Origin: a virus
Lineage: Duplodnaviria; Caudoviricetes
DNA: 64,000 bases
Virus record (IMG/VR): IMGVR_UViG_2708742752_000007
Coordinates: 1 to 64,000 of that record
Strand: one strand, 5' to 3'
Position numbers and translations under genes: made by a program. The stretch's first letter is position 1. Each line of letters begins with the position of its first letter. Positions 10,934-64,000 of the stretch are shown piece after piece. The notes under the pieces were generated by a model. That model was not told the origin of the DNA. It saw only the letters and a program-made list of their open reading frames with translations, and made no database searches.

Positions 10934-10966
10934 TTCCGTTCCTCTCCTTTTGTCCAACTAGCTCAG

Positions 10967-11726: not shown

Positions 11727-11729
11727 ATC

Positions 11730-22892: not shown

Positions 22893-22901
22893 GAGAGTCA
22901 T

Positions 22902-23102: not shown

Positions 23103-23111
23103 GAAAGTCAC

Positions 23112-27145: not shown

Positions 27146-27155
27146 GGAGAGCCAT

Positions 27156-27485: not shown

Positions 27486-27487
27486 CC

Positions 27488-44500: not shown

Positions 44501-47500
44501 CCTTCTCTTCGATAGACTTTGCGGCAGCTATCCAGAACGCGCGTGCGCAGTTGAGTGACTTGCTCGCCAGCTTTGCCAACCTGGATATGAGCAAGGTGCT
44601 GGGCTCGCTCAAGTCGGTCGATTTCAGCTTTATCCGCGATGCCCTATCGCCTGTCAAAGACTTCTTCAAGACCATGGGCTCGGAAGGCACCGAACCATTC
44701 CTCAAAGTACGCGACTCCATGGCGGCCATCGTGGCCGAGCTGAATGCGACGGGTGAAATCAACGAAGAAGCCTTTGCCAAGATCGGCGAGGTACTGGGCG
44801 ATCAGAATAAGGAGATGACCAAGTACCTACGGCTGCAATTGGAACTGCATTCTGCACAGAGAAAACTCCAGGATGTCCAGGGCGAAGTAGCCGCTGCTGA
44901 GGCCAGGGGCTTTGTGCCCGCTGCATTGAAGGCCAAGCTGGCGGCTGCCGAAAAGGATGTTGAGGATAAGAAGGAAGCTGTCGATTGGCAAAAGGAATAC
45001 GTGGCCTGGCAAAAGGAGGGCAACCAATTACAACAGGAATTCGTAGGTGGCCTGGACAAAGCTGCCAAGGCTATGGGCAAGGCAGCCTCGGCAGCAGGTA
45101 GTGCTGCCAAGGCCCAGGCCAAGCAGATCGAAACCTTAGCAGAGTGGTACGCCCGCGAGAAGGCCCTGATCGAAGAGAAATATCGCCTGGGCGTTATCGG
45201 CGAGCAGGAATATGTACAGGCTCTTCTCAATTTGGAGAAGCAGTATGTAGATCGCTCGTTGGAAGAGGGCATTCCCGCTGGTCTGGATGCCCATGTACAG
45301 GCGATTAAGGAGTTAGAACTTCGCCTGGAGGGCCTCAAGGAAAAGACCAAAGAGGCGCAGGGTCAGGCGTCCAAAGGTATCGAGATGCAGACGCCTGCCG
45401 AGATTCTGGGTAAATTTGCAAAAAATATACAGGAAATAGCCCAACAGACAGGCGGCGATTTCGCCGATGGATTCGTGCTTGCCATGCGCGAGGGTATCCC
45501 GCGTAATGTGCCCGGCTTGATGGCTGACATATGGGCCAAGATACTTGAAGGCTTTGTAACCATCTTTAACAACATCCGTAACTTTTTGGCACAGAACGTC
45601 ACGCCTCAGAACTTTCCTATATTCGCGGTTGTTGCCGGACTATTTACCCAATTGGCAGCTTCACCTATTATGAACTTCGTTACCAGGCTGGCTGCCAGGA
45701 TTGCGCCAGTCATTGTTAGATTGGGCGGTCTCAGAGGTATCTTGCTAAAGCTACTGGGTGTGCTTGGCAGAGCTGCATTGCTAGGTGGAATTATCATCAC
45801 TATCTTCTTGAATTGGGATAAGATTGTAGCTGCACTCAGTCCAGTTATAACTAGTTTATCTACAGCCATCAAGGCACTTGCAGACGAGGCTATAGCTGCC
45901 ATTATAGAGCGCATGGGCGGTGCGGAGCAGGCGGCCATCAAGTTTAATGCTGCTTACGAAACGATGCGCAGCATTGTAGCTGGTGTCGGCGAGGTATTCA
46001 ACATGCTGATCACCAGCGGTTTCTCAGAGATCGGCCAAGCTATCGAGGGCGCGTTTAAGTCCGCAGTCATGGCTATGCCGACCCAGGGTATTTCAGGCGC
46101 TATCTCAACTTTCTTCACTACGCTCATCAGCTCGCTAAGCACAACCAATATAGGACAGGCTATCACAAACCTGTTTACCAATGCCGTGGCTGGCATCAGA
46201 GAGACCATACTTCCCATCTTCTCAGATGTTTTGGGTGGTATAGGAACTGCTCTTGGGGGCCTGGTGCCACCTGGTGTGGTAGATACGTTCAACCAATTGC
46301 GTCAGTCGATTGCAGCCTTTTTCGAGGAAGGCAGACTGGGCGGAGAAATCGTTAGACTTTTCGGCGACCTAAAAGAGTTGATGGTAGCTCTAGCCCCCAT
46401 TGCCAAGGCTCTTCTATCTGTTTTGGCAGCCCTGGCTGGCCTTGTGGCTAATTCTCTGGTAGCCGCATTCCAGACCATTATAGATATTCTGCCGAATATT
46501 GAAGGCTTCTTTGCTGGCCTGGTGAGAATAGTGCGAGGCGTGCTGGATGTAGTGAGCGGTTTAGCCACATTAATACAATCTGCGTGGGCACTTATCACAG
46601 GTGATACAGAAAAAGCCCAAACCCTTTTCCAGACGGCGATAGGTCAAATAGGTAGTGGGTTGGGTGAAATCTTTAGTGGCATAACTCTGGCTGTCAGCAA
46701 TGCCGCTCAGGCGATACTGGGGTTCCCTATAACCTTCATAAGCCACTTTGTAGATAATATAATCGCCTTCCTTCCCCAGGGATCTAGTTTCTCGCAAACG
46801 CTCCAGGCCATTGGTGGTGCTATATCCAGCTTAAAAGACATTCTCACTGGCGCATTAGAAGCCATAGGTAGCGGTATAAGCGCTATCGGCATGGTCATCA
46901 GCGACTTCCTATCTGGACAAATCAGTTTTCAAGAAGCCTGGAACCAAATAAAGACGATCTTTGCATCGACCGTCGATGCCGTATCAGAAGCACTCGCACC
47001 ACTGGGACAGGCATTATTGGATGGTATTCTTAATGGGGTTGAGTGGCTAAGAACCAATGCCCCCATAATTTTGCAGACTATCGGTGCCTGGGTTACAGAC
47101 ACACTTGTTCCCGGCATAGCCAGTTTTGCGGCCTCACTAGCTACTGGCTTCGTGGATCTATTTGGCAAGGCAGTCGAATATGTAGGTGCTAACTGGCCTA
47201 CCTGGCTAGAAACCTTAAATAGTTACGCTGCATCGATCATAGCTGGTGTCGTCACGTTTGTCACTACTACTCTACCAGTGTGGGCAAGTGCGTTAGCAAC
47301 CAAGGTTGGCGAGCTGTTCCAGGCAGCTCTGGATTATGTACAGACTAACTGGCCTGCCTGGTCTGCTACACTTAACAGTTATGTCGGTCCCATCATAGAT
47401 GGAATCATTATTTTCTTCACGGCTACACTACCGACATGGATAACTGATCTGATCACCAAGTTCGGTGAGTTAGTACAGGGTTTACTTATTTATGTGGGTC

Positions 47501-49284: not shown

Positions 49285-51908
49285 TGGGTATCGCCGACGC
49301 GACTCTGATACTCCATGCGGAAGGTAGAGCTAGCATCACTTTTGACACGTTGAGCATAGATGGTGCCACGGCAGGCTATTATGTTCCGGCTGAGACGCTG
49401 ATCTTCAACGAAGCCGAGCGGGAGCAGATCGTCTACTCGGAAGGAGCCAATATCGATGGCGGTGAGTATATCACCAGCTTCGCGCCCCTGGTAGATGTCT
49501 CGTTCACGTGTTACTGCTGGGGTGACACTAGGGTGGCTGCCATCCAGCGTGCCCAGGCGCTCAAGTTGGCGGTCGGCAACGAGCACGGTGGGCAATTGCA
49601 ATACATGCCTGCCGACGTAATTACTCGCTCTACCTATTATCACTACGTCAAGAGTCCCATCCCGCCCATGGCCGACGTGACTGACAATACCTGGGACAGT
49701 CGCCTAAAGGCTACGCAGAGCATTGGCAACAAGTACGTGGTGGTCCTGGAAGTCGTGCTCAAGACCATGCCGGTTGCCACCAGCGATCCCGACAACCTGG
49801 TGGCGTTGTCGCTATCTCGCTCGACATTGGATGACCACGTGTACGGGGCAGCCTACAACTATTTCGACATCACCGGCAGCGCCGTCAAGGGCGACCAACC
49901 CGCCTACGTGCGTTTCCGCGCTCGCAACTCGCAGTCAGGCACCAATGAGGAGATCGCCAAGCTGTACCTGACCTCGCGCAGCTCCCTGCTGTCCACACTC
50001 AATTACTACCAGCACGTGTACCAGGCCGAAGATGCTACCAGCCTGACCCCCACGGCGGTATGGTCCACGCCTGCCGATGGTTCACGCTCTGGCTCTGCTT
50101 ACCGGCGCTGTAACCCCGGTGCGGAGTACAACGATGACCAGTTGGGTTTACGCTTCACGCTGTCCAACGAGAGCCACCATCGCGGGCGCTGCACGGTACT
50201 GGGCGTGGTACGGGCCAAGACTGCCTACTGGTCCAGCCAGGTCAAGTACACCATCGCCGGTGAGGTGGTGGCCTATAGCTCAGCCTACAACTATGCCGAG
50301 CACTTCGATAAGTGGTCGATCATGGTTCTGGGCGAGATCGACATGCCTGCCATGATCATCAGTGGGCTGGAGACTATCGCGCCTGCCCTGGAAGTGTACT
50401 TTACTCGCAGCGATGGCTCAGAGGGAGACTACGTGGACCTGGACTTTATCATGCTGGCTTTCAACGACGAGTGCCTGGCTTTGTTTAGCCACGCGGACGG
50501 CTTTACCAACGACCAGAAGCTACTCTTCGAGCGACTGGCAATGGGCAAGAGCCTGGCGCACTTGATCAACCAATCTACGTCGGCCTTTGAGGACGAGGTA
50601 GATGCGCACTATGGCTCGGAGGTGTTGCCAGTTCCGCCTGGCTTCGACACACGGGTAGGTGTGCTGTTCCAGCGGATCGATCCAGTCGTATTCGAGGATG
50701 ACTTCAGCAGCTACGATGGTGTCAGCTTTTTGCGTCTGGCACAGATGAATCTGGACGAGTCGTGGACTGAAGATCCAAGTGATGGCACTGTGGAAGTTGT
50801 GCTCGATTCAGTCGTATATCGCGTCGAGGGTGATGCATCTCTAAAGTTGATACCTGGCCCCATAACCCAACTTGCCAGTTCCTACCTGTCCATTACGCCC
50901 ATCAACCTGGGCAGTGGATCGCTTTTCACAGATGGTGACTTTCTGTGTTGGTTTGTTGATTGTCTGAATGTTTCCAAGTTATCCGATGCCATCATTGCAC
51001 TGGGTGAGTTAGGGGCAGTAGGTCCATACATTAGTAGTGCCCTGGGCGATTTTTCACTGGCAGCAGGCTACAATTTCAAGTATGTGCTTAAGACTGTTAT
51101 CCGGGGCTATAGCCTGGGTATGAATGCCACATCATTGGTGGGTATTCAGTATGCAGCTACCGATGGCTCCGGGCCTGTCTTTTATACCGACTATCTCAGA
51201 ATCGAAAAAGCTGATCCAGATGATGCCACCCGACCCAATGCCACAGGTGCCAATTGGAACTTCCAGCCCAACGATGGCAGGTGGGCTATTACTTATGACG
51301 GACCAGGCGGAGATAACGAGGCAGTTCTGGCTTGTTTTGAACAGGCGGCTGTTGGGGTTGCCACGGCTGCCCGCGACATAACTACACCCGATGACGTGGC
51401 TGGATTCTGCAAAATTGCATTCAGAAATAGCACGTCTCATTCAGCCGGTATCGCCTTCAGGTTAAGCGACCAGACATTGGGTAGCGAGGATGGCTACGTC
51501 TTCATCCTGTATGGCTATGGCTACATTCGCCTGATGAAGTACGTAGCTGGTACGCCTACCTACCTGGCAGAGGTCGGGCTGGCTACCGGCAATCTATCGC
51601 TCGATACATGGTATTGGCTGGGTTTCAAGGCAGATGGCAACTCGCTCAAGGCATATTTGAGCCTGACCGAGCCGGTGGGCGACAGCAATTCCGAGAAATT
51701 AGCCAACCTACTATCCGAATCTAACCTGGTCGTCAGTGTGACAGATGCCACTTTCAGTTCTGGATCTGTGGGGGCCATGTCACACAATTCTGGCACACGC
51801 TTCGGGGAATTTTATGTCGAGCACGTCGAGGATCTACATATACCAGCCGACCAGGTAACAGTCGAGGCGGCGGCATTATTCAGGGGTGTTTACCCCTTCC
51901 CGGACTAA
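49284..51908 (+). CDS. evolved distal tail protein (Dit) with inserted carbohydrate-binding/lectin-like domains
   Basis: directly after TMP; jelly-roll-like segments (YVDLDFIML, FYTDYLRI, GIAFR...WYWL...G.VG). Confidence 0.65.
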   Translation: MGIADATLILHAEGRASITFDTLSIDGATAGYYVPAETLIFNEAEREQIVYSEGANIDGGEYITSFAPLVDVSFTCYCWGDTRVAAIQRAQALKLAVGNEHGGQLQYMPADVITRSTYYHYVKSPIPPMADVTDNTWDSRLKATQSIGNKYVVVLEVVLKTMPVATSDPDNLVALSLSRSTLDDHVYGAAYNYFDITGSAVKGDQPAYVRFRARNSQSGTNEEIAKLYLTSRSSLLSTLNYYQHVYQAEDATSLTPTAVWSTPADGSRSGSAYRRCNPGAEYNDDQLGLRFTLSNESHHRGRCTVLGVVRAKTAYWSSQVKYTIAGEVVAYSSAYNYAEHFDKWSIMVLGEIDMPAMIISGLETIAPALEVYFTRSDGSEGDYVDLDFIMLAFNDECLALFSHADGFTNDQKLLFERLAMGKSLAHLINQSTSAFEDEVDAHYGSEVLPVPPGFDTRVGVLFQRIDPVVFEDDFSSYDGVSFLRLAQMNLDESWTEDPSDGTVEVVLDSVVYRVEGDASLKLIPGPITQLASSYLSITPINLGSGSLFTDGDFLCWFVDCLNVSKLSDAIIALGELGAVGPYISSALGDFSLAAGYNFKYVLKTVIRGYSLGMNATSLVGIQYAATDGSGPVFYTDYLRIEKADPDDATRPNATGANWNFQPNDGRWAITYDGPGGDNEAVLACFEQAAVGVATAARDITTPDDVAGFCKIAFRNSTSHSAGIAFRLSDQTLGSEDGYVFILYGYGYIRLMKYVAGTPTYLAEVGLATGNLSLDTWYWLGFKADGNSLKAYLSLTEPVGDSNSEKLANLLSESNLVVSVTDATFSSGSVGAMSHNSGTRFGEFYVEHVEDLHIPADQVTVEAAALFRGVYPFPD

Positions 51909-51919: not shown

Positions 51920-53182
51920 TTGAAACGAATAGCGATTATGTCAACCTTCTTCGAGGCCACCAGCGGCTACTCGCTCATCGGCGTAGCCGAGACGCAAATC
52001 CGCATGCTGCTGGATCATGGTTACGAGCCGGTGGTGCTCGTGCAGGATAATTTTACGTCACCTCCATCTCCCACACTCTGGTCAGAAACCATGATAGATT
52101 TGCGTAAATGCCTGCCCTTCATGCACTTACGCACCGACGTGGCCCCCGATTTTGAAGAGAGGGTTAGCAAGATCGAAGCAGCCCTGGCAGAGCACTTGGC
52201 TGATGTCAATGTCTGCATCACGCACGATATTATGCTTCAGGACTTCTACAAGGAGCACAACGCAGCCGTGCGGCGCTATGCCAAAAGTAGACCCGACTTA
52301 CTTTGGCTTCATTGGCTGCACAGTTGCCCCTCACCCAGCAATGAGGCCCAATACCCCAACGCCCTGCGCTATATCTCGCCACCAGGCTTTCTCGTGTATC
52401 CTAACTCGACCGATCTAAGCCGTGTGTGCCAGACCTACCATCTGGGCGGGCAAGAGTGGCGTGCCAAAGCCTGCCGCGCCGGGCACGCCATCGATCCCTT
52501 GCGAGTGTGGCATTACGACCCTTTGACAGTCGATCTGGCGACCAGGGCCAGATTGCTGTCGGGTGAGGTGGTAGCGGTCTATCCAGCCAGATTGGATCGT
52601 GGAAAACAGCCAGAGAAGATCATCTATCTCATGGCAGGTGTCAAAGAGGCTGGCTACGAGCCACGCCTGCTGGTCATCGACTGGCAGAGCGCCGGGCAGC
52701 GTTTCCAGCAGTACATCGATGAGTTATTGGCCTTGAGTGAGAGCCTGGGTCTGGGCGATTGTGTTAGTTTTACCTCACGCCTGGATGACCGCTGTAGCCA
52801 GGGCGTGCCACGTCACGTGGTTGTGGAGCTGATGGATCTGTCCAATACGTACATTCATCCCAGTCGGGTGGAAACCTATAGCTTGGTAGTCCACGAAGCC
52901 GCTCTGCGCGGTAAGCTGCTATGTCTCAACCATGACCTGCCACCCATGCGTGAGCTATTTGGGGATAACAGCATCTTTTTCGACTTCGAGAGTGACCGCT
53001 TCAGCCGCAGGTACGAGCCGGATGAGCGTATCTTCTGGCAGGGTGAGGCCAAACGTCTGATCGCCGAGTTGAAACAGAACCGGGCTTTGTGGGCACAGAC
53101 GGTGGCCCGCAGAGAGTGGACACCCGAAGCCATGTGGAAAGAATTCGAGACGCTATTTTTCCTGGAGTCAGTCGGTGAGTGA
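51920..53182 (+). CDS. GT4-like (GT-B) glycosyltransferase in the tail module
   Basis: YPARLDRGKQPE, HPSRVETYSLVVHEA. Confidence 0.82.
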   Translation: MKRIAIMSTFFEATSGYSLIGVAETQIRMLLDHGYEPVVLVQDNFTSPPSPTLWSETMIDLRKCLPFMHLRTDVAPDFEERVSKIEAALAEHLADVNVCITHDIMLQDFYKEHNAAVRRYAKSRPDLLWLHWLHSCPSPSNEAQYPNALRYISPPGFLVYPNSTDLSRVCQTYHLGGQEWRAKACRAGHAIDPLRVWHYDPLTVDLATRARLLSGEVVAVYPARLDRGKQPEKIIYLMAGVKEAGYEPRLLVIDWQSAGQRFQQYIDELLALSESLGLGDCVSFTSRLDDRCSQGVPRHVVVELMDLSNTYIHPSRVETYSLVVHEAALRGKLLCLNHDLPPMRELFGDNSIFFDFESDRFSRRYEPDERIFWQGEAKRLIAELKQNRALWAQTVARREWTPEAMWKEFETLFFLESVGE

Positions 53183-53756
53183 TTATCACAGTCTGATGCG
53201 TAATTGGTCAGATACCTGGTTTATGGGTGTGCAGTGTAGTCAGTACGCTGTAGACTTCGTGTTGTGGGAACGCCTGCTGAACCATAACCCTGACGTGGAT
53301 CGCATCATCGAGCTGGGTACACTGTGGGGCGGTTTCAGCCTTTTCTTGTTTTTACAAGCCCTACAGCGCAATATGACATTTATCACCTTCGATGATGGAT
53401 CATATGCAGTTACACAATGCAAGACTGATGGTCCACTGGCTGTTGATACGCCACTTGGACAAAGACTCGATCTGACTGATCACTGTGTACATGGCAATGT
53501 ATTCGATGATTGCTACGAGATAGTGACTTCATATTTGCAAGGCCCAGGCCGCTGTGTCTTGTTCTGTGACGACGGCAATAAGCCCAAAGAGTTTGCTACC
53601 TTCGCGCCACTTGCCAAGCCAGGCGACATCATCGTGGTGCACGATTGGGGCACCGAGATACTGGAGCAGCACATCGACTATGATTTGGTGGACGAGATCA
53701 TGGCAGAGGATTGCCATAGCCTGGGCAGCCTGAGCCATTTCTTCATCAGGAGGTAA
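53175..53756 (+). CDS. methyltransferase-like protein (CmcI/Methyltransf_24-like)
   Basis: IIELGTLWGG, FCDDG, KPGDIIVVHD. Confidence 0.72.
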   Translation: MSDYHSLMRNWSDTWFMGVQCSQYAVDFVLWERLLNHNPDVDRIIELGTLWGGFSLFLFLQALQRNMTFITFDDGSYAVTQCKTDGPLAVDTPLGQRLDLTDHCVHGNVFDDCYEIVTSYLQGPGRCVLFCDDGNKPKEFATFAPLAKPGDIIVVHDWGTEILEQHIDYDLVDEIMAEDCHSLGSLSHFFIRR

Positions 53757-53757
53757 T

Positions 53758-54012
53758 ATGGCAGGTAGAAACATCAACGTCTGGATCGAGAACTGGACCA
53801 ACGATGGCGTGAACGTTCAGGTGCCGCGTTATTCGGTTAGCGTGCGCATCGAGTGGACTAAAGCGGACGGCACGCCTGGTAGCCACGAGAATGCCTACAG
53901 GTTTCCCAACGCACTGCAAAACGTGCCGGTGGCACGTCTGCGGCGCTACATGGAGGAGATCATTTTGCGTGAGGTACGGATTCAATTGGGCATAGACGAG
54001 GCGCAGGAATGA
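53758..54012 (+). CDS. small hypothetical protein
   Basis: AGGAGGT SD. Confidence 0.7.
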   Translation: MAGRNINVWIENWTNDGVNVQVPRYSVSVRIEWTKADGTPGSHENAYRFPNALQNVPVARLRRYMEEIILREVRIQLGIDEAQE

Positions 54013-55385
54013 CTACCTATTATGTCGGCTCCGGTGGCAATGACGGCAATGACGGCCTTACATGGGGCGCGAGAAAATTGACCCTCAACGGGGTCGAAGA
54101 CATTCCCGTCGTAGCAGGCGATACCGTCTACGTCGCGCCGGGCGTCTATCGAGAACTACTGACCTGTGACGTATCTGGCTCGGCGGGTAATCCTATCACT
54201 TATATCGGTGATGTGACGGGCGAGCATACTGATGGCATAGGTGGCATCGTGCGTGTCACTGGCAGTGACAACGATACGAGCACTGCCAGGAATTATGGCA
54301 TCACCGGCACTGGGCGGAATTTCCGCACTTTTCGCGGCTTCCGTATCGATGCATGCACGCTGGACGGCATTATTCTCGACGGCACGAACTGGATCGTCGA
54401 GGATTGCGCCATATTCGACACCACTCGGTATGGCATTTACGTAAACGGGGCCAACCAGGCCAGTAACACATTCCGGCGCTGTTGCATGTTCGGCTGCAAA
54501 CAGACGGGCATCCTATTTTATCATAGTGCCGACGTAGCCGGGACGAGCCAACTGGTCGAGAATTGCTTAATTCTCGATTCCGACTACGGCCTGCACAGCC
54601 TGATCGAAGTTTGGAACATCGATGGAATCACTATCAAACATTGCCTGCTGAGCGGCGGCATCGGCGCGGGTGTCCGCGTCCAGGCCAACACAGGCAACCC
54701 CATGGTCACTGTACGCAATTCGATGATCCAAAACTGCTGGCGAGGATTCAACGCCGTGGCCGCAGGCGACATCGACGAGAATTATAATAATCTGTACGGC
54801 AACAACGCGAATCGGACTAACACGAACATCGGTGCCAACTCGACGACGTACCCGCCCCTGCTGGCAGCGCCACTACTATTGGACGGCATCAGGCTGCCGT
54901 GGTGGTTCGGTAGGCTCTCGGAATGGTCAGCCATGCGGCAATTGACAGGGGAAAGCATGTCAGACGACGACCTGTCCGGCATCACGCGCCCGGCAACGGA
55001 CAGTAAGAAATCGTGGGGAGCAGTGCAGTTCCAACCCATGGTGCGTGAGGCAACCACGGTGCGTACCGGGGCAGCCAGCCTGGAACTGTCCGACGCGGGC
55101 GAGCACCAGATCATAGTGCCGGTATCCAATGAGAGCACGACCATCAGTGTCTATTGCTACCGCGAGGCGGACTATACTGGGACCAACCCACGTATGGTCA
55201 TCAAGCAGCCTGGGCAATCTGATCGGACTACGACCGACGCTGGTGCGGCCTCGCAATGGAATCAACTGACAGACACCTTCACCCCGGCAGCCATCCCGCC
55301 CTACGTGGTGGTATGCCTGCAAAGTCTGAACACAGCAGCAGCTACGGATTTCAAGGTCTATTTCGATGACTTGGTGGTTTCATAA
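54009..55385 (+). CDS. right-handed beta-helix (pectin-lyase-like) protein with C-terminal CBM-like domain
   Basis: TYYV...GNDGNDG...AGDTVYVAPGVYRE, repeated VENC/GI motifs, YFDDLVV. Confidence 0.78.
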   Translation: MTTYYVGSGGNDGNDGLTWGARKLTLNGVEDIPVVAGDTVYVAPGVYRELLTCDVSGSAGNPITYIGDVTGEHTDGIGGIVRVTGSDNDTSTARNYGITGTGRNFRTFRGFRIDACTLDGIILDGTNWIVEDCAIFDTTRYGIYVNGANQASNTFRRCCMFGCKQTGILFYHSADVAGTSQLVENCLILDSDYGLHSLIEVWNIDGITIKHCLLSGGIGAGVRVQANTGNPMVTVRNSMIQNCWRGFNAVAAGDIDENYNNLYGNNANRTNTNIGANSTTYPPLLAAPLLLDGIRLPWWFGRLSEWSAMRQLTGESMSDDDLSGITRPATDSKKSWGAVQFQPMVREATTVRTGAASLELSDAGEHQIIVPVSNESTTISVYCYREADYTGTNPRMVIKQPGQSDRTTTDAGAASQWNQLTDTFTPAAIPPYVVVCLQSLNTAAATDFKVYFDDLVVS

Positions 55386-56885
55386 GTGGCAAACCCACAA
55401 AACCCAGGCACCTTCGATTTCTGGATCACCGACCGGCTGGCCTTCCAAAATGCGCCGCCCCGGTCGGGTGATACAGGCACGTTCGACAACTGGGTTACAG
55501 ACAGGGTTTATTTCCAGGATTATGTCGAAGCTGCTGGCGAGGCATCCAGCAGCAGCTCGTCCAGCTCTTCGTCATCCAGCTCAAGTTCTTCCTCTAGTTC
55601 TAGTTCATCGAGTACTAGCTCGTCCAGTTCTTCATCATCCAGCTCCAGCAGCAGCTCGTCGTCCAGTTCTAGCTCATCTTCATCGAGTAGCTCAAGTACG
55701 TCGAGCAGCAGCAGTTCATCGAGTTCAAGTTCTAGCTCGTCGAGCACTAGTTCGTCTTCATCCAGTTCAAGCTCATCTTCGAGTAGTAGTAGCTCATCCA
55801 GTTCGTCGTCTTCGTCTAGCAGTAGCTCAAGCTCCTCAACGAGTTCATCTTCTAGTTCGAGCACAAGTTCCTCGTCTAGTAGTTCTAGTTCTTCATCTTC
55901 GTCCAGCAGCTCAAGTTCATCGTCGAGCTCGACTAGTAGCTCATCTTCATCGTCGAGCAGTAGTAGTTCGTCGTCGTCTAGCTCCAGTAGTTCCAGCTCA
56001 TCATCTAGCAGCAGTTCAAGTTCCAGCTCGTCGTCTAGCTCTAGCTCGACAAGCTCTAGCAGCTCTTCGAGTTCAAGCAGTAGCACTTCATCGTCGTCAT
56101 CTAGCTCGACTAGTAGTTCTAGTTCGAGTTCATCCAGCAGCTCTTCGTCGAGTAGCAGCAGCTCAAGTAGCTCAAGCTCGACTACCAGCTCATCGTCTAG
56201 CTCAAGCAGTTCCTCAAGTTCATCGTCTAGCAGTTCCAGTTCATCTTCATCCAGCAGCAGCTCGTCATCCTCAAGCTCGACCAGTAGCTCTAGCAGCACA
56301 TCTGAATCATCAAGTTCGTCGAGCAGCTCAAGTTCGAGTTCATCGAGTTCGAGCAGCAGCAGTTCCAGCTCATCATCCAGCTCCAGTTCGTCGAGCAGTA
56401 GCTCTACATCGTCCAGTAGTTCCAGCTCGTCATCTAGCTCAAGCAGTAGTAGTTCTAGCAGTAGTTCATCTTCGAGTTCGTCCATCTCAAGTAGCAGTTC
56501 GACTTCTATATCCAGCAGTTCCAGCTCGTCCAGCAGTAGCTCGTCATCGAGTAGCTCTTCAAGCTCATCTAGCAGTACATCTGTATCGTCGTCCAGCAGC
56601 AGCTCAAGCTCAGGCAGTAGTAGCTCGTCTTCGTCCAGCTCGTCTTGGTCATCCAGTAGTTCGAGTTCATCCAGCAGTATATCCAGCGTATCCTCGTCTT
56701 CGAGCAGCAGCTCGACTTCAATTTCAAGTTCAAGCAGCTCGATTAGTATCCAATACCAGCCTGATGCACTGGACTTCAACGTGACTATCTCACGCCTGAG
56801 TCTAGAATTCGACGTGGAGTGTGCGGATACACTGGACTTCGACGTAGAGTATACAGATACGCTGGACTTCAATGTAGAGAGGTAA
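55386..56885 (+). CDS. poly-serine protein (~400-aa Ser tract) with short repeated terminal motifs
   Basis: abuts flanking genes in operon; all six Ser codons used; duplicated GTFD.W.TDR N-terminus and LDFxVE C-terminal repeats. Confidence 0.85.
   Translation: MANPQNPGTFDFWITDRLAFQNAPPRSGDTGTFDNWVTDRVYFQDYVEAAGEASSSSSSSSSSSSSSSSSSSSSSSTSSSSSSSSSSSSSSSSSSSSSSSSSSSTSSSSSSSSSSSSSSSTSSSSSSSSSSSSSSSSSSSSSSSSSSSSSSTSSSSSSSTSSSSSSSSSSSSSSSSSSSSSSTSSSSSSSSSSSSSSSSSSSSSSSSSSSSSSSSSSSSSSTSSSSSSSSSSSTSSSSSSSTSSSSSSSSSSSSSSSSSSSSSSSTTSSSSSSSSSSSSSSSSSSSSSSSSSSSSSSSTSSSSSTSESSSSSSSSSSSSSSSSSSSSSSSSSSSSSSSSSTSSSSSSSSSSSSSSSSSSSSSSSSSISSSSSTSISSSSSSSSSSSSSSSSSSSSSSTSVSSSSSSSSSGSSSSSSSSSSWSSSSSSSSSSISSVSSSSSSSSTSISSSSSSISIQYQPDALDFNVTISRLSLEFDVECADTLDFDVEYTDTLDFNVER
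55545..56747 (+). repeat. poly-Ser coding tract, 401 codons
   Basis: mixed TCN/AGY codons with sparse Thr/Ile. Confidence 0.95.
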
Positions 56886-56889
56886 TTTT

Positions 56890-57204
56890 ATGGAAGCACA
56901 CCACAATGATATTGGTACGATCCTACGCCTGACGGTGCGCCGTCAGGATGGCAACGTGGAAAGCGGTCTGGGCTTGGCTACCAATCTATACATCTACCTG
57001 ACGCCGCCCAGTGGCGTAGATAAGACCAAGGCAGCCGTATTAAGCAGCAATGGATCTGACGGGAAAATGCAATACGTCACCGTGAATGGCGATCTGGATG
57101 AGACAGGCTCCTGGCAGATCCAGGGCTACATCAAGTTCAGCAATAGCCAGATATTCAAGACCAGCGTGCGCCAGTTCAACGTGCTGGCGAATTTGGTGCC
57201 GTAG
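56890..57204 (+). CDS. BppU N-terminal-like Ig-fold baseplate protein
   Basis: NDIGTILRLTV...DGKMQY...GDLDETGSWQIQGYI...FNV. Confidence 0.7.
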   Translation: MEAHHNDIGTILRLTVRRQDGNVESGLGLATNLYIYLTPPSGVDKTKAAVLSSNGSDGKMQYVTVNGDLDETGSWQIQGYIKFSNSQIFKTSVRQFNVLANLVP

Positions 57205-57207
57205 TAT

Positions 57208-59646
57208 ATGCCTATCATAAAAGCAAGTATCTGCTCACTTGATAACCTGCCTATCCTGAAAGAACAGGTCGAGATTCTAAGAGATGACCCCTTAATCAAC
57301 GAGATCATAGTTGTTATAAATGGGTCTATCGATGGCAGCCGTGAGTGGATTGCAACCCAAACAGGCTTAACAGTAATCAACATGGAAGAGAACAGAGGGG
57401 CCAGTGTTGGCAGAAACACCGGCATAGATACCGCAGGCAAATTTGATTACATTCTATTGCTAGATGGCGGAATTGTTCCATTGCGTGGTAGCATTGGGTA
57501 TATGCTTGACTATCTTGAAAAGCACCCTGAAGTAGATGTCATCTCACCAGAAATAGCCACATGTTTTTCTACGAATAGAGAAGAAGCCTGGAGACGCATG
57601 CCTGGCCCAATCGACGAGAGCACTTGCTTCCCACAACGCATGCTAAGTAGTACAGCCTATGCTCTATGTAGATTTAATGCATTTGATGGCATCAGATTTA
57701 CAGAAGAAGGCCCATATGGTAAATCTGGTTGGAAATGCGAAGACAACTGGATGGCTTTTGTCTGGAATGAAGCTGGCATCATCCACCACGATTTTGGCGG
57801 CATCAAAGCATATCGCAAGCAGTCTGGTTCTTTCGCCAGGCAATACAAAGAAACTGGCGTATATCCATCGCAGTATGGGTCTGTGTATGAACAAGCCCTG
57901 GTCTTGCTCTGGCAACGCTTCCCCCACCAATGGAACCAATGGAACACCTATCGTAACCCGGTCCTCGACGTATCCTGCGTGGTGTTGGGCTGGAACGAGT
58001 ATCCCATGTTTGCGCGTGCCATCAAGGCGCTGCACGACGAGCTGCACGATACGCCGCACGAGGTTATCTTTGTTGACAACGGCTCGACCGACAAAACGAA
58101 GTGGTGGCTGGACACTTTCGCCCTGCGCCAGCCCCACGGCGACACCACCATCGATGGCGAGACAGACGAGATATTGAGACGAGGTGAGCAGCTTGAATCC
58201 ATCTGGACAGGCAACGTTATCCGAGTGGACTTACCAACTAATATGGGTGCCGGTTACGGTTACAACGCTGGTTTTGAACATAGTAGAGGGAAGTATGTAT
58301 TCTATCTGTCGGGCGATATATTGCCCGTCCCAGGCAGTGTGCTTGGCCTCAAACGCTACCTCGACGAGCATCCCGACGTTGATTACGTAGCCGCCAATGC
58401 CTGGTGCAGTCAGGACCAGAGTGAGCAGGTCGAGTTCTCGCCCGCGAGCTACGAGGGCCTACCTGCCATGGGTTTAGGCAATTATGCCTTTTGCTACGCC
58501 ATGATACGCAGGCGAGTGATCGACGCGGGCGTGCGCATGGGCGACCAGGGGCCATTTGCCGGACCTGGCTGCGGCTTCGAGGATGCCGAGTTCGCCAACC
58601 AGATGTATGAGAAGAGTTTCCGTGGCTTCGTCTTCAACCAGCCCGCTTACTACCACCAGCGACGCGACTTCAAGAGAAGCGGGCTTGTCCCCACCGAGGC
58701 AGATTGGGCAAGCGAGTCCAAAATCAGACTCGCACTTGACGAGCGCCGCCAGTGGCTATGGACGCGCTGGCCCAAGAGCAATTTTGCCATCCTGCACTAT
58801 CACGACCAGCCGCCAGCGCGCCACATCAGGAAGGTTGCCGTCGTGTGGCAGGCAGTCGAGAACCAGCCGGGGCCAGGTGGGCACTTGCTGGCGGCTTTGC
58901 AAAGTATATGCCAGGCCGATCACTTCAACCCTGGCGACGAGCCAGAAGGCTACGATAACTACGTCTACGTAGACGATGGGCCGAGCAGCTACCTGGAGCC
59001 GCTGCGCCGACCGGCCTACTTCTGGGCCATTGACATGATCCTGCCCCACCAGACGTGGAGGCAGGCACCTGAGACCTACCTGGAACGCGCCCGCCATTTC
59101 GATAAGACCTTTGCCGCGCAGCCATGTGCAGTGGAGTATTTCAAGGAACGCGGTATCGATGCCGAGTGGCTGCCACTGGCGGCTAACCCGGACTATCACA
59201 AGCCTTATGATGAAACTAAGGATTATGATTGGATCGCCCTATGGCACAACACGGGCTTGCGGGTGGACTATGCCCAACTGGCGATCTTCAACTTCCCGCG
59301 TGGCTACGTGGGCTATGCGCCAGGCGAAGCCTACAGTCAGTATCTATCACGGGCTCGCTGTGCGCTCAACCTGAGCCGGTCAGACGAACTAAACCTGCGC
59401 GTGTTCGAGGTCATGGCAACCGGCGTGCCATTGATTACAGACCGGGCCAGGGGAGTAGATACGCTGTTCGCGGAGAACGAGCACTACCTGGGCTTCTCCA
59501 ACAGCGACGAGGTGCTGGCGCAGATAGCCTGGGTGATCGGGCACCCTGGTGAAGCCGAACTCATGGCGACCAGGGCCAGGCAATTGGTTCTGGATAAGCA
59601 CACCTATTATCAGCGCACGTTACAAATATTTGGCAGGCAGGAGTAA
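57208..59646 (+). CDS. triple-domain glycosyltransferase (GT2 + GT2 + CgeB-like GT-B)
   Basis: INGSIDGS...GRNTG; VDNGSTD...GYNAG; WLPLAA...LNLRVFEVMATG...HTYYQR. Confidence 0.85.
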   Translation: MPIIKASICSLDNLPILKEQVEILRDDPLINEIIVVINGSIDGSREWIATQTGLTVINMEENRGASVGRNTGIDTAGKFDYILLLDGGIVPLRGSIGYMLDYLEKHPEVDVISPEIATCFSTNREEAWRRMPGPIDESTCFPQRMLSSTAYALCRFNAFDGIRFTEEGPYGKSGWKCEDNWMAFVWNEAGIIHHDFGGIKAYRKQSGSFARQYKETGVYPSQYGSVYEQALVLLWQRFPHQWNQWNTYRNPVLDVSCVVLGWNEYPMFARAIKALHDELHDTPHEVIFVDNGSTDKTKWWLDTFALRQPHGDTTIDGETDEILRRGEQLESIWTGNVIRVDLPTNMGAGYGYNAGFEHSRGKYVFYLSGDILPVPGSVLGLKRYLDEHPDVDYVAANAWCSQDQSEQVEFSPASYEGLPAMGLGNYAFCYAMIRRRVIDAGVRMGDQGPFAGPGCGFEDAEFANQMYEKSFRGFVFNQPAYYHQRRDFKRSGLVPTEADWASESKIRLALDERRQWLWTRWPKSNFAILHYHDQPPARHIRKVAVVWQAVENQPGPGGHLLAALQSICQADHFNPGDEPEGYDNYVYVDDGPSSYLEPLRRPAYFWAIDMILPHQTWRQAPETYLERARHFDKTFAAQPCAVEYFKERGIDAEWLPLAANPDYHKPYDETKDYDWIALWHNTGLRVDYAQLAIFNFPRGYVGYAPGEAYSQYLSRARCALNLSRSDELNLRVFEVMATGVPLITDRARGVDTLFAENEHYLGFSNSDEVLAQIAWVIGHPGEAELMATRARQLVLDKHTYYQRTLQIFGRQE

Positions 59647-62600
59647 ATGCCCCCCAGTGTAACCGCCGTATTTGACGCCAACAGCGAAGGAACCCTTGTT
59701 GCCAGCCTGACTATTTCGGGCGTGACCACCTCTGGCAGCAACCGCCAATTGTTGGTCGGGGTAGCTATCCGGTCTGATTCGTCTACGATCAGTGGCGTGA
59801 CGCGGGGAGCCGAGACTTTTACCAGCCTGGGCAATGCCGCCAGCGGCTCGCTGTTGCGGGTGTATCTATTCCGCTGTGACAGTGAGCCAGCCACGGCGGC
59901 CACGGACATAGTGTGTACCGTCAGCGGTGCAGATCGCCCGGTAGCCGCCAGCGCTGTGGCATTACAAGATGTACACCAGACCACGCCGTATGGCACTGCC
60001 GCTACTGCCGCTACTGCCAGCGACGTAGGTCTATCTGTATCGCCTGGCAGCGCCCTGGGCGACCTGATCATAGACGTGCTGACCACCCATGCCAATGCGA
60101 CTGCGCATGCCACCACTCAATCTGGACAGAATATCGAGGTCAGCAACCCGGCAGGCAGCGATGCGGCTACACGTATGGACGAGTACCAGTCCAGCCGCGC
60201 CGGTGCAGCAGGCAATACCACCATGGGCTGGTCGTGGACTACCGCCACAGAAGGCGGCCTGGTAGGTGTGGCAGTCAAGCCATCTGAGGCATCCTCCAGC
60301 AGCAGCTCGTCCAGCTCATCTTCGACTTCGAGTAGCTCGTCTTCGTCCAGCTCGTCCTCCAGCTCGTCTACTACTTCGTCATCATCATCGTCGCTGCCGC
60401 CCTCCGCTTACCCGGTCATCATCGACCACGAGGAAGGTGATTTCACCGATTACGACTCGACTGTAACCGACGGCGGGCGATTGCAGGTCACAGCCGCCGC
60501 TGCTATGGTCAGTCTATACGGACTGTCGGTGCCCACTGATGGCGACACGGATGCTATTTATGGACACAAGGACATGCCCACCCTGTCCACCGGGCTGGTG
60601 CGCTGCCGTTTTTACTTCGACCCTAACAGCACAGCCACCATCGGCGAGTTCTCGGATATACCCATCCTGGAGCTTAACAGTGCAGCCGGGCGGGTGGCGT
60701 CGGTCACATACCGCGTCACCAGCTCAGCAACTCGCAGTGTGCGTGCCACTATCGTGAACGACGCGGGCACGCCCAGCCTGACCGCCCTGATCACCATCAC
60801 CGACGCGCAGCATTATATCGAGATCAGGCTGGAACGGGCCGCTGATTCCGGTAGCAGCGACGGGCGTGTCGATATTTGGGTAGACGGTGCCGGGCTACAA
60901 AGCGTGACGGGCATCGACAACTACGACAGGTTCGACGACCTGGATAGCCTGCGGGCGGGCGCACTGGCGGATCAGGGTGGCGACCCGCTGAGCGGCACCC
61001 TGTACATCGACGAGATCGTGGTGTCTGACGAAGATGTCGAGATAGGGCCGGTTTATGACTGGCAGGTATCAGCCGATTCAGATGATTGTTACGACACTGA
61101 CTCGGCTGGATTCTACCTGGGTGGCTACGAAGGCTTAATTTACCTGGGGAACTCTATCTCTGGCGGGAATGACGCTGGTGGTTTCAGATTCCAGAATATA
61201 ACCATACCCAATAGCTCAACCATCAATTCAGCAACATTGCAAGTCTACTCAACAGGCAGCATAGTCGGTACACCAGAAACTAAAATCGTAGCCGAAGCTG
61301 CTGACAATCCTGGACCTTGGGCCGGTAGCACACACGAGCCCATCGGCATCAGTGAAACCACAGCCAAAGTAGATTGGGATATAGCTTCATGGACAAGTGG
61401 CTGGCGTATTTCGCCAGACATCGCAACTGTTATTCAGGAGATTGTCAATCGTGCTGGTTGGTCGAGCGGCAACGCTATATGCCTGGTAGTGCGTAACGAT
61501 GGTTCCAGTAGTGAGGAGTGCGAATTATATGACTACACTGGCAATAATGCACTGACTGCCAGATTAAGTATTAGTTATACGGAGCCCAGCAGCTCGTCGT
61601 CAAGCTCATCTTCGACCAGCAGCACATCGTCCAGTACGAGTTCGTCGTCGAGTAGCAGTTCATCCAGTTCGAGTTCATCTAGCAGCTCGTCGTCGAGCAG
61701 CAGCAGCTCAAGCTCGTCGAGTTCGTCAAGTACAAGTAGCAGCTCGTCGAGCAGTTCCAGCTCGTCGTCATCCAGTTCTTCATCGTCGAGTAGTAGCAGC
61801 TCGTCCAGCTCGTCTACTACTACTTCTTCTTCGTCGTCCATACCGCCATGCGTCAGCCCGGTCTACAAAGACGATGCCAACCTGCAAGGCTTGTGGCTGT
61901 TGGAGGAGGCCAGCGGTACGCGCTATGACTACACGCCCAACAACAACGATTTAACCGACGCCGCTTCGGTGGCCCAATCTGCTGACCATAAGGAAGGCAG
62001 CTACAGCGCCGATTTCGAGGCTGGCGACGTAGATTACCTGGAGATCGCCGACGCAGCCCAGGTCGGGCTGGACATCACGGGCAATCTGACCATCTGCTGC
62101 TGGTTCAAGGCGGAGAGTTTCCCACAAGACAGGCAAATCCCGGTTTCCAAGATGGGTGCATCGAGTCAATTCGGTTATGGATTATATATTGACCGCAATA
62201 TCACAGATCGCCTGTTGGTAGCTCAACTTTCCGGCGATGGCAGCAGTACCAGCTCGGCCATAGGAGCAACCAGCCTCAGTGCGGAGACGTGGCATCACGT
62301 CGCCATGGTTTACAACGGCACAGATATTCGCATCTACCTCAACGGCGTGCTGGACGAGAACGGCGCGTCAAACCCACTGAGTTATTCGTCCGGTATTTAC
62401 AATAACAATGCCGCCTTCCAGATCGGGCGTAGCGTGGGCGATGGCGACAGCTATACCTTTGACGGCCTGATCGACGAGGTGGCTGTCTTTGACCGGGCCT
62501 TGTCGGCTGACGAGATCATGTGCATCTATCTGAACGGTATCGAAGACCCGATACCCAGTAGTAGTTCATCGTCGTCTTCGAGTAGCAGCTCATCTTCATC

Positions 62601-64000
62601 GTCAAGCAGCTCGTCTACTACCAGCAGCTCGTCTTCGTCCAGCTCCAGCTCGTCCTCCAGCTCGTCGTCAAGCTCGTCTTCGACCAGCAGCACATCGTCC
62701 AGTACGAGTTCGTCGTCCAGTAGCAGCTCAAGCTCGTCGAGTTCGTCCAGTTCCAGTTCGTCCAGCAGCACGTCATCGAGTTCAAGTTCAAGCAGTAGCT
62801 CGTCGTCGTCCAGCAGTTCAAGCTCAAGCAGCAGCTCGTCGTCGAGCAGCAGCAGCTCCAGCTCTTCGTCGTCATCCAGCTCCAGTAGTTCTAGCTCATC
62901 ATCCTCCAGCTCATCTACAAGTTCTTCATCTTCGAGCAGTAGCTCGTCGTCTACCAGTAGCTCATCTTCGTCCACGTCCACACAGACCAGCTCCAGCTCG
63001 ACTTCGAGTAGCTCGTCGAGCTCTACGTCCATCTCGTCGAGCTCGTCCAGCACCACATCCAGCAGCTCGTCCAGCACCAGCAGCTCGACTTCGAGCAGTA
63101 GCTCGTCCAGCTCGCAATCGTCTTCGTCCACATCCAGCTCAACTTCCAGCTCGTCGAGTAGCATATCCAGCTCGTCGTCGTCAAGCAGTACGTCCATCTC
63201 CGTGCCACCCGTGGCCCACCCGGTCCACATCGCCCGACCCATCCTGGAAATCTACGATCACGCGGGTAAGCAGTTCCGCATGCACGACGCCACTGCCATC
63301 AAGTACAGCAACCACTACTCGGAAGAGGGCTCCGGCTACGGTTACTTAGCCTTCAACCTCAAGCGCAAGGTGGGCTACGACTACCAGGACATCGGCTTCG
63401 GCTACCGCGCCATACTGCGCAAGGGCATCAACATGGTCCTGTTCGACGGCGTGATCGTCAAGATCGACGAGACACACGGCGGCGAGGGCGACCAGATCGT
63501 GGTCGGCTGTGTGGGCTGGAATAGCTTGCTGGCCTTCGACGTGAAGAACTTCATATTGAGTGATAGCCGCCTCAACCGCTGGCTGGGCTCACAGGTGGTA
63601 TCGGGCTCGTTCACGCCCGACAAATTCGACGCCAACAACTCGTGGACGGTAGACGACGTGAGCTACAGCGGGCTACAATTCAAGCCACGCCGAGGCAGCG
63701 ACTATATAGAGGATGACTACACCTACTTGCGCTACACTTTCGAGTTCGGCGAGACGGTAGCCAAATTAAGCTACGACTGGGAAACGGCCTTTCCCAACTC
63801 GTGGCCGGGCAAGTTCGAGGTGCTCGATGCGAATGGTACGGTGCTGCACTCGGAGACTGTCACCGGCTCAGGCAGCAAGACGCTTTCCATCTCCGGCGGC
63901 AATCACGTCGAAATCCGCATGTACGTGACGCAGGCAGGCGAGAGCACCGCCGAGGATAACACGGTGTACATCAGGTTGCAGAACGTGATAGTCTATTCCA
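59647..64000 (+). CDS. multidomain tail-tip protein: adhesin-like domains, LamG, three poly-Ser linkers and a Tal/hub-like domain (partial, at least 1451 aa)
   Basis: ATG immediately after the TAA of the GT gene; frame is open to the window end (absent from ORF track); LamG motif WHHVAMVYNG...IYLNG...GLIDEVAVFDRALS. Confidence 0.85.
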   Translation, partial: MPPSVTAVFDANSEGTLVASLTISGVTTSGSNRQLLVGVAIRSDSSTISGVTRGAETFTSLGNAASGSLLRVYLFRCDSEPATAATDIVCTVSGADRPVAASAVALQDVHQTTPYGTAATAATASDVGLSVSPGSALGDLIIDVLTTHANATAHATTQSGQNIEVSNPAGSDAATRMDEYQSSRAGAAGNTTMGWSWTTATEGGLVGVAVKPSEASSSSSSSSSSSTSSSSSSSSSSSSSSTTSSSSSSLPPSAYPVIIDHEEGDFTDYDSTVTDGGRLQVTAAAAMVSLYGLSVPTDGDTDAIYGHKDMPTLSTGLVRCRFYFDPNSTATIGEFSDIPILELNSAAGRVASVTYRVTSSATRSVRATIVNDAGTPSLTALITITDAQHYIEIRLERAADSGSSDGRVDIWVDGAGLQSVTGIDNYDRFDDLDSLRAGALADQGGDPLSGTLYIDEIVVSDEDVEIGPVYDWQVSADSDDCYDTDSAGFYLGGYEGLIYLGNSISGGNDAGGFRFQNITIPNSSTINSATLQVYSTGSIVGTPETKIVAEAADNPGPWAGSTHEPIGISETTAKVDWDIASWTSGWRISPDIATVIQEIVNRAGWSSGNAICLVVRNDGSSSEECELYDYTGNNALTARLSISYTEPSSSSSSSSSTSSTSSSTSSSSSSSSSSSSSSSSSSSSSSSSSSSSSSSTSSSSSSSSSSSSSSSSSSSSSSSSSSSTTTSSSSSIPPCVSPVYKDDANLQGLWLLEEASGTRYDYTPNNNDLTDAASVAQSADHKEGSYSADFEAGDVDYLEIADAAQVGLDITGNLTICCWFKAESFPQDRQIPVSKMGASSQFGYGLYIDRNITDRLLVAQLSGDGSSTSSAIGATSLSAETWHHVAMVYNGTDIRIYLNGVLDENGASNPLSYSSGIYNNNAAFQIGRSVGDGDSYTFDGLIDEVAVFDRALSADEIMCIYLNGIEDPIPSSSSSSSSSSSSSSSSSSSSTTSSSSSSSSSSSSSSSSSSSSTSSTSSSTSSSSSSSSSSSSSSSSSSSSSTSSSSSSSSSSSSSSSSSSSSSSSSSSSSSSSSSSSSSSSSSSSSSSSSTSSSSSSSSSSSTSSSSSSTSTQTSSSSTSSSSSSSTSISSSSSSTTSSSSSSTSSSTSSSSSSSSQSSSSTSSSTSSSSSSISSSSSSSSTSISVPPVAHPVHIARPILEIYDHAGKQFRMHDATAIKYSNHYSEEGSGYGYLAFNLKRKVGYDYQDIGFGYRAILRKGINMVLFDGVIVKIDETHGGEGDQIVVGCVGWNSLLAFDVKNFILSDSRLNRWLGSQVVSGSFTPDKFDANNSWTVDDVSYSGLQFKPRRGSDYIEDDYTYLRYTFEFGETVAKLSYDWETAFPNSWPGKFEVLDANGTVLHSETVTGSGSKTLSISGGNHVEIRMYVTQAGESTAEDNTVYIRLQNVIVYS
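60292..60393 (+). repeat. poly-Ser linker 1 (34 codons)
   Basis: direct translation. Confidence 0.9.
61588..61839 (+). repeat. poly-Ser linker 2 (84 codons)
   Basis: direct translation. Confidence 0.9.
62557..63201 (+). repeat. poly-Ser linker 3 (215 codons)
   Basis: direct translation. Confidence 0.9.

Follow-up and report, generated by a model that had tools for sequence, protein, structure and literature searches.

Poly-serine tracts of phage virion proteins co-occur with a soluble glycosyltransferase module: a putative system of self-encoded virion O-glycosylation

We analysed the tail operon of an uncultured tailed phage (Caudoviricetes; IMG/VR record IMGVR_UViG_2708742752_000007), two products of which carry long homopolymeric serine tracts. 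The stretch of DNA under study, hereafter called the window, has a length of 64,000 nucleotides (nt) and represents positions 1-64000 of contig C63 (94,133 bp), which is part of a 3.86-Mb assembly of 169 contigs. In this operon, genes for soluble glycosyltransferases (GTs) and for a methyltransferase are interleaved with those of the tract-bearing proteins. Similar tracts were detected in all 14 informative loci that contain the GTs, but in none of 65 loci without them. We think it rather probable that the phage encodes a virion O-glycosylation, the acceptors of which would be the homopolymeric Ser (or Ser/Thr) tracts, and that soluble enzymes would glycosylate and methylate these tracts in the cytoplasm. 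The operon and the relevant parts of the largest tract protein (aa, amino acids; ORF, open reading frame; E, expectation value; pLDDT, predicted local distance difference test) are as follows:

49284..51908, plus strand: 874-aa protein in the Dit position, named by position only
51920..53182, plus strand: GT4-type (GT-B) glycosyltransferase, soluble (Pfam PF00534 Glycos_transf_1, E 4.6e-8)
53175..53756, plus strand: CmcI/rhamnosyl-O-methyltransferase-like S-adenosylmethionine (SAM) methyltransferase (Pfam PF04989 RMNT_CmcI, E 1.1e-5)
53758..54012, plus strand: 84-aa ORF, no family match
54009..55385, plus strand: beta-helix tail protein, 458 aa (Pfam PF13229 Beta_helix, E 3.6e-10)
55386..56885, plus strand: 499-aa poly-serine protein (translation; GTG start at 55386)
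56890..57204, plus strand: 104-aa all-beta, Ig-like protein (AlphaFold2 model, pLDDT 63)
57208..59646, plus strand: GT2-GT2-CgeB-like GT-B fusion, 812 aa, soluble (Pfam PF00535, E 3.7e-29; PF13524, E 1.4e-24)
59647..64800 (contig numbering; passes the window end at 64000), plus strand: 1717-aa tail protein (ORF extent)
60292-60399, 61588-61845 and 62557-63201, plus strand: Ser tracts of the 1717-aa protein, 36, 86 and 215 residues
62032-62517, plus strand: LamG domain of the 1717-aa protein (Laminin_G_3, E 2.8e-29)
From 63214, plus strand: hub/Tal domain, the C-terminal 528 residues of the 1717-aa protein (model pLDDT 90.4)

The gene order given in a preliminary description of this DNA was borne out by the ORF list and the translations. 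The tape-measure gene and the gene in the Dit position are followed by those for the GT4 enzyme, the methyltransferase, the 84-aa product, the beta-helix protein, the 499-aa protein, the 104-aa protein, the GT fusion and the 1717-aa protein. From the Dit-like gene through Tal, neighbouring genes are separated by -8 to +11 nt. The GTs and the methyltransferase of the tail operon have no segment hydrophobic enough to span a membrane.

To compare related phages, loci were sampled in three ways, namely through the GT fusion, through the hub domain and through the beta-helix protein, the last of which is itself neither a GT nor a tract carrier. Sampling with the GT fusion comprised a protein search, two scans of viral contigs, a metagenome scan, a genome-collection scan and the context of three homologues. 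The co-occurrence of tracts and GTs across viral contigs, which the preliminary description had proposed to look for, was seen in 14 of 14 informative non-redundant GT-positive loci (12 relatives, the window contig and locus L060). Poly-Ser genes that occur independently of the GTs in related phages were looked for as well and were not found in any of the 65 GT-negative loci (920 kb). In each non-redundant locus that encodes a close relative of the first GT2 domain (37-61% identity) and extends over a few kb of flank, a Ser/Thr-tract ORF resides beside the GTs on the same strand. The tract ORFs lie downstream of the GTs in L002, L005, L006, L008, L029 (=L038), L030, L031, L032, L033, L035 and L037, and just upstream of the GT genes in L036 only. 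Judged from these sequences, the tracts are invariably accompanied by the first GT2 domain, and GT4, either separate or fused to the GT2 enzyme, is present in nearly all tract loci sampled through the GT fusion. The six loci sampled through the hub (L041-L046) contained neither GT homologues nor tracts. Likewise, 52 of the 53 IMG/VR loci sampled through the beta-helix protein had no GTs and no tracts. The only GT4-bearing locus of these 53, L060, encodes a beta-helix protein that terminates in a Thr-rich tract, with the GT directly downstream. Comparative genomics thus supports the earlier proposal that the Ser tracts are served by co-encoded GTs.

The 401-residue tract of the 499-aa protein is composed of 374 Ser, 17 Thr and 10 other residues. 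Its size and that of the 215-residue tract agreed with the preliminary description, while the two other tracts of the large protein, previously given as 34 and 84 residues, were recounted as 36 and 86. Each of the six serine codons occurs, in no regular order, and no exact DNA repeat in the 401-residue tract is longer than 21 nt. These mixed codons and short repeats indicate that selection on the protein maintains the tracts, which are not a trinucleotide expansion. When the whole assembly was scanned in six frames, no other such tract was disclosed outside these genes. For comparison, a survey of 102 phage proteomes from 2019 gave 115 residues as the longest low-complexity region (PMC6821194), whereas the tracts reach 401 residues in the window phage and 600 in its relative L030. 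Tract borders were read in the window (60292, 60399, 61588, 61845, 62557 and 63201) and in L006, L029, L030, L031 and L037. The tracts usually start after a pair of acidic or small residues (EYDEA, EYSTG, EYEEG, AAGEA, KPSEA), and many of them end at a hydrophobic-Pro-Pro motif (LPP, IPP, VPP, MPP). This border pattern suggests a cassette with defined junctions. ORF lists of such regions can mislead: antisense poly-Glu mimics poly-Ser, and antisense poly-Ser mimics an ORF rich in Leu, Glu and Asp. A 450-aa Leu/Glu/Asp ORF on the minus strand (55520-56872) was accordingly dismissed as the mirror image of the serine codons, and an apparent Ser tract in L073 (6300-6671, minus strand) was discarded as the antisense of a poly-Glu scaffold region.

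The 499-aa protein consists of a 53-aa head with two GxFDxWxTDR repeats, the 401-residue tract (nt 55545-56747) and a 45-aa C-terminal tail with LDFNV-type repeats. The head corresponds to the conserved N-terminus of the gene located directly after the beta-helix gene in L047, L048, L052, L058, L071 and L073. These relatives came to light when the DNA that follows the genes of beta-helix homologues was read; a word-indexed protein search with the head (residues 1-56) yielded no match. In the relatives without GTs, the body following the head is a varying non-serine repeat or is absent (L047, L071), and a poly-Ser body was found after the head only in the GT-bearing phage of the window. The consensus of the head family (L048:2328-3362, L052:11470-13137, L058:11576-12721, L073:3565-4914; window 55386-55544) comprises two GxF(D/E)xW(I/L/V)(T/S)DR repeats; the repeat body behind them is hypervariable, and the types HAHTADNVAL, VSEAVKLL, VSVTVPVASLTLTGYAPT and GITD..IGTFIR were seen. 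The GTG start at 55386 is supported by the L048 orthologue, which likewise begins with MANP.

For the neighbouring beta-helix protein, 697 homologues were obtained at E <= 1e-5, the best 120 of these 697 being about 50-58% identical, and by sequence it belongs to a large family that is conserved among uncultured phages. A few homologues (P0226, P0239, P0240) are in-frame fusions in which the beta-helix protein continues at its C-terminus into the head. These fusions make it probable that the beta-helix tail protein is the docking site for the head of the 499-aa protein. The beta-helix and the poly-Ser ORFs share the same frame and are separated by one TAA (window 55383-55388). A read-through of this stop codon was considered and mostly rejected, as TAA terminates 23 other ORFs. 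It is also disfavoured by L047, L048, L052 and L071, in which the downstream gene lies in another frame, and by L073, where the downstream gene follows directly with its own ATG. The MANP start in one of these relatives points in the same direction.

Across the GT-positive loci, the tracts are carried by at least eight virion proteins, which are mostly unrelated to one another. The carrier of L031 is a Tal-type protein with a Sipho_Gp37/Prophage_tail domain after the tract. L036 encodes a capsid cement/decoration protein (Phage_cement_2; L036:2322-2792) with a C-terminal tail of 27 Ser and a 381-aa virion protein (L036:6505-7650) with a C-terminal tail of 30 Ser; a GT-B gene and a GT2 gene are located just downstream of the two. 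In L037 the carrier is a ConA-like protein whose tract is Thr-rich, and further carriers comprise several orphans. The longest tracts in relatives have 410 residues (405 Ser; L029) and 600 residues (L030). This diversity of carriers argues that tracts were acquired repeatedly in the presence of the module. We regard the case as evenly balanced for the further-reaching reading that the tracts are portable acceptor cassettes (E/D-x-A/G start, often a hydrophobic-Pro-Pro end), put on any virion protein (hub, fibre, cement, beta-helix) by a clade of uncultured phages that possesses soluble GT4 and GT2 enzymes, with or without a CgeB-like GT and with or without a sugar methyltransferase. If this were true, these phages would have a modular, self-encoded, mucin-like coat which is built in the cytoplasm and whose tracts reach up to 600 residues.

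Some details of the relatives may be added. The tract proteins at L005:8267-10837 and L008:4245-6674 show Ser and Thr in a ratio of about 2:1 with a single Tyr every 30-35 residues, and both end in the conserved basic C-terminus GEIYFKGMWRG..KGR. In L037, the GT2 homologue (9245-11242) has an N-terminal extension of 250 residues without a family assignment, and the next gene (11242-12822) encodes a 526-aa protein without a Pfam match.

The preliminary description had addressed the 1717-aa product as an adhesin/Tal protein, and the Tal assignment was confirmed by the predicted fold of its C-terminal domain. Foldseek returned as the best match a chain of the T5 tail-tip complex (E 1e-13); Mu gp44, the lambda tail tip, T4 gp27-gp5 and VgrG1 were matched as well (E 1e-13 to 1e-5, probability 1.00). 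With a hub fold at its C-terminus, the protein is a Tal with an unusual N-terminal extension of 1190 residues. This extension strings the LamG and other beta-rich domains between the serine tracts. Of about 150 hub-domain homologues, most are stand-alone proteins of 500-530 aa, and only one contains short S/T-rich pieces; in L037 the hub is a stand-alone 526-aa gene product (38% identity). No BLASTP alignment was obtained between the hub and the Sipho_Gp37 domain of L031, and searches of PDB sequences with the hub, the Dit-like protein and GT4 were uninformative.

With respect to the enzymes, the GT4 gene scored 33.2 bits against PF00534 (gathering cut-off 26.4). Separate homologues with 50-68% identity exist in L002, L006, L029, L030, L031, L035 and L038, and in L005, L008, L032, L033 and L034 GT4 is fused to the GT2 enzyme. 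It had no NCBIfam match, and a PDB profile search gave no GT at E < 0.1. The GT fusion matched PF00535 (Glycos_transf_2) in three stretches with 102.2 bits, above the gathering score, and contains two GT-A domains (residues about 17-160 and about 255-530), while PF13524 (Glyco_trans_1_2) covers residues 700-807 with 87.1 bits (cut-off 25). With respect to the canonical DxD metal-binding motif, the columns D86-G87-G88 and G369-D370-I371 are invariant among 17 homologues, so that one Asp is kept per GT2 domain. The protein search revealed 29 near-full-length homologues of the fusion (44-61% identity), the genome-collection scan a single distant GT2 match. A weak GT2 match (E 9e-4) was found to chain 5hea, deposited as 'Putative glycosyltransferase (GalT1)', which we take to be GalT1 of the Fap1 glycosylation of S. 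parasanguinis.

The methyltransferase scored 25.7 bits against PF04989 (gathering cut-off 23.2) and weakly against the NCBIfam equivalog for rhamnosyl O-methyltransferase (17.8 against a cut-off of 400); by sequence it is a candidate for sugar O-methylation. CmcI-like homologues adjoin the GTs in L008, L033, L009 and L018, and other methyltransferases of the module are FkbM in L029 (with a corresponding 453-aa ORF in L030) and a fused Methyltransf_11 domain in L032. A sugar-methylation step is supported by this recurrence of sugar-type methyltransferases in the module. None of the scanned ORFs encodes nucleotide-sugar synthesis, and thus the donors would be nucleotide-sugars of the host. That soluble enzymes lie inside the operon of tail proteins assembled in the cytoplasm is a reason for us to favour glycosylation of the tracts.

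The best NCBIfam matches of the GTs were PgaC, EpsD and HpsE, all far under the cut-offs. As these families are polysaccharide synthases, it may be asked if the enzymes make a free or lipid-linked polysaccharide or if they glycosylate the phage DNA, the link to the tracts being indirect, for example by non-covalent binding of the polymer. DNA-modifying phage GTs are well known, as works cited in PMC12619734 indicate. We nevertheless judge this explanation very improbable. The operon provides no membrane segments for a synthase or for export, and its genes are translationally packed with those of tail proteins and not with replication genes. Moreover, no thymidylate-synthase-like hydroxymethylase was found in the assembly, which weighs weakly against DNA glycosylation.

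Several points weigh against a glycosylation of the tracts. All support for it comes from genes, the GTs match only generic GT2/GT4 profiles, and no specific match to a known protein O-glycosyltransferase was obtained (NCBIfam, PDB profiles); with generic matches only, the type of acceptor is not readable from the sequence. Fisher's exact test on the above counts (14/14 versus 0/65) gave 8e-16, a value overstating independence because the GT-positive loci are evolutionarily related and represent fewer events than loci. A further 17 GT-positive contigs were too short to be judged and stand outside the 14. Tracts without these GTs may occur elsewhere, as the sampling was anchored on genes and is not unbiased for poly-Ser. 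Finally, unmodified polyserine linkers are established in bacterial carbohydrate-active enzymes (PMC2386152, PMC2699552).

It is therefore conceivable that the phage tracts, too, are unmodified flexible linkers or spacers like those of Cellvibrionaceae carbohydrate-active enzymes and that the GTs do other work, for instance on the host envelope (superinfection block, receptor masking). The tracts of Tal do separate LamG from other beta-rich domains, and the generic family matches of the GTs would suit such a role. We consider it unlikely, since neither the coupling of tracts and module (14/14 versus 0/65) nor the non-serine repeats of the GT-less orthologues would be explained. Furthermore, many tracts are terminal, being followed by nothing or by 17 residues only (L036, L029); such tails are not inter-domain linkers, which argues against a pure linker role. 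No polyserine proteins are encoded by the host assembly. As regards the envelope, the GTs have no membrane segments and reside inside the late tail operon and not in a lysogenic-conversion position.

In sequence, polyserine linkers of carbohydrate-active enzymes are nonetheless the closest analogue of the tracts. Such linkers, in which all serine codons are used, join carbohydrate-binding and catalytic domains in bacteria (PMC2386152, PMC2699552, PMC2810307). Those of Saccharophagus, Teredinibacter, Cellvibrio and Xanthomonas albilineans share with the window tracts the homopolymeric Ser, the mixed codons and the association with carbohydrate-binding-type domains. The bacterial linkers are much shorter than these phage tracts. 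They belong to secreted enzymes and are not known to be tied to dedicated GTs, whereas the carriers of the phage tracts are virion proteins and the tracts themselves co-vary with the GT genes. In addition, the 401-residue tract and the tracts of several relatives are terminal or nearly so.

A second region with enzymes of this type is situated on the head side:

22314..32862, plus strand: second glycan-type island, between portal and head genes (Pfam, PHROGs, NCBIfam)

It contains genes for four SAM methyltransferases, an enzyme of the sulfatase/phosphotransferase superfamily, a GT-B-like protein and a GT2-GT4-GT4 fusion, and is probably part of the same modification system as the tail module. 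A sortase-domain protein is also encoded there, with a small hydrophobic ORF just before it. The sulfatase/phosphotransferase-like enzyme and the several methyltransferases of this island would fit another explanation, according to which the tracts are modified by a different chemistry (phosphorylation, phospho-linked groups or acylation), while the GTs act on other virion residues or extend a non-sugar primer. This appears quite improbable to us: Pfam and NCBIfam disclosed no kinase or acyltransferase in the tail island, and across loci the tracts co-vary with the GT4/GT2 pair and with methyltransferases of the sugar type, but not with the sulfatase-like gene.

Glycosylation of the tracts by the phage enzymes could proceed as follows. 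Late in infection, the tail operon would be expressed and the soluble cytoplasmic enzymes would act on newly made tail proteins. GT4 and the first GT2 domain would form the conserved core, the second GT2 and the CgeB-like GT-B domain taking part in the extension. Sugars from host nucleotide-sugars would be transferred to serine hydroxyls and extended into short glycans, and the CmcI-like methyltransferase would O-methylate the added sugars. The product would be mucin-like, extended and protease-resistant segments. In the Tal/hub protein, they would separate the LamG and other beta-rich domains and project them from the tail tip, and in the 499-aa protein the tract would be a free brush. They might serve reach or adhesion in matrices rich in polysaccharides, guard against proteases or act as a shield. 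In this scheme we infer the serine acceptor, the initiating enzyme, the glycan itself and its biological role, as well as the stiff bottle-brush physics which the preliminary description ascribed to the tracts.

By analogy, the system works like two known ones, those of mycobacteriophages and of serine-rich-repeat (SRR) adhesins, and is a member of neither. To our knowledge, virion glycosylation has been demonstrated experimentally in mycobacteriophages only. In Che8, Corndog and Myrna, the C-termini of capsid and tail-tube subunits bear glycans added by phage-encoded GTs, and the glycosylation affects antibody recognition, as reported for the work of Freeman et al. (2023, Cell Host Microbe 31:1216) in PMC12619734 and PMC10877033. 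As in these phages, the GT genes of the window phage are located in the structural region, here between the Dit-like gene and Tal and between portal and head genes, and would, as there, serve virion proteins made in the cytoplasm. In the relative L036, the poly-Ser C-terminal tails of the cement protein and of another virion protein would be sites comparable to the C-terminal ends glycosylated in mycobacteriophages. In contrast to the mycobacteriophages, the window phage possesses homopolymeric Ser tracts of 36-401 residues on distal tail proteins, and its major capsid and tail-tube proteins have no such tails. The set of enzymes differs as well (GT4, GT2-GT2-CgeB-like, CmcI methyltransferase). 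A search by tblastn (E <= 1e-5) of 50,697 GenBank phage records with the GT fusion and GT4 did not reveal homology to the mycobacteriophage GTs; in these records, the GT fusion had two weak partial matches in unannotated gut-phage entries, and neither the beta-helix protein nor GT4 had any.

The SRR adhesins of streptococci and staphylococci (Fap1, GspB, SraP) are stalk-like and depend on GtfA/GtfB together with the accessory Sec system. Soluble enzymes of the GT-B and GT-A types, encoded alongside them, attach O-glycans to these adhesins while they are still in the cytoplasm, prior to assembly or export. In these adhesins, as in the phage proteins, very long Ser-rich regions flank binding domains, and together with GtfA/B they are, by analogy, the closest functional counterpart in bacteria. 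Unlike the adhesins, the phage tract proteins carry neither a signal peptide nor an LPXTG anchor, as seen by reading their N- and C-termini, and no hydrophobic segment (maximum KD19 0.52 and 1.39). Their tracts are near-pure Ser, not SxSx dipeptide repeats. GT4 showed no specific homology to GtfA/GtfB (NCBIfam, PDB profile search). SecA2/SecY2 had no match among the scanned ORFs, the contig not having been searched for them specifically.

Virus-encoded GTs also glycosylate the fibrils of Mimivirus and the Vp54 protein of chloroviruses (PMC9614988, PMC5408694). Like the window phage, these giant viruses possess their own cytoplasmic machinery, including sugar-modifying enzymes, for the virion surface. 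They differ by their eukaryotic hosts, by acceptor sites that are not poly-Ser, by unrelated enzymes and by the nucleotide-sugar pathways which they encode and which were not found among the ORFs scanned here. Full-text searches of the literature gave no report in which poly-Ser virion proteins are linked with GTs of a phage, in agreement with the statement of the preliminary description that no phage system with this architecture had been described.

Some of the smaller assignments in the operon have to be qualified. For the gene at 49284-51908, the designation Dit holds for the position but not for the sequence, which had no Pfam, PHROG or PDB sequence match. A 31%-identical homologue of its product follows the tape-measure homologue in L037. 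Searches for viral-contig loci with the Dit-like protein alone and with the hub domain alone yielded no match. The 104-aa protein had been called BppU-like, for which support was weak: its model is Ig-like and the weak Foldseek matches include baseplate chains of TP901-1, 80alpha and NF5, so that the protein is possibly BppU-N-like. A homologue with 34-35% identity adjoins the GT4 gene in L002. The 84-aa ORF had no homologue in the fetched loci.

Upstream of the operon, two further features were recorded:

39827-40615: ORF matching phrog_7339 (annotated as DNA repair exonuclease), between the putative tail-tube and the tail-chaperone/tape-measure genes
41530..49284, plus strand: tape-measure protein, 2584 aa, the longest ORF of the tail region, with which the distal tail module starts

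The tape-measure protein is 34% identical to the product of an L037 ORF that sits upstream of the Dit-like homologue. Contig C63 looks viral throughout. It encodes a large terminase, a portal and a major head protein (PHROGs) and, downstream, DNA methylases and a sliding-clamp-like protein; many of its ORFs are orphans. Neither an integrase nor a host flank was found among the scanned C63 ORFs, no tRNA in the last 35 kb of the contig and no terminal repeat on it. Public sequencing runs that contain the region are metagenomes of sediment, soil and groundwater, and no RNA runs are listed among them. One public-run contig is identical over 55445-56542 and may derive from the same sample as the window.

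The comparative pattern makes the proposed glycosylation a hypothesis that is directly testable by co-expression. If it is true, soluble enzymes of the bacterial cytoplasm and short acceptor tags would be at hand for mucin-like glycoproteins made in bacteria. The self-glycosylation of phages would be broader than currently shown, and modular, and a puzzling class of virion proteins of extreme low complexity would be explained. It would also bear on the adhesion and survival of phages in polysaccharide-rich sediments and biofilms.

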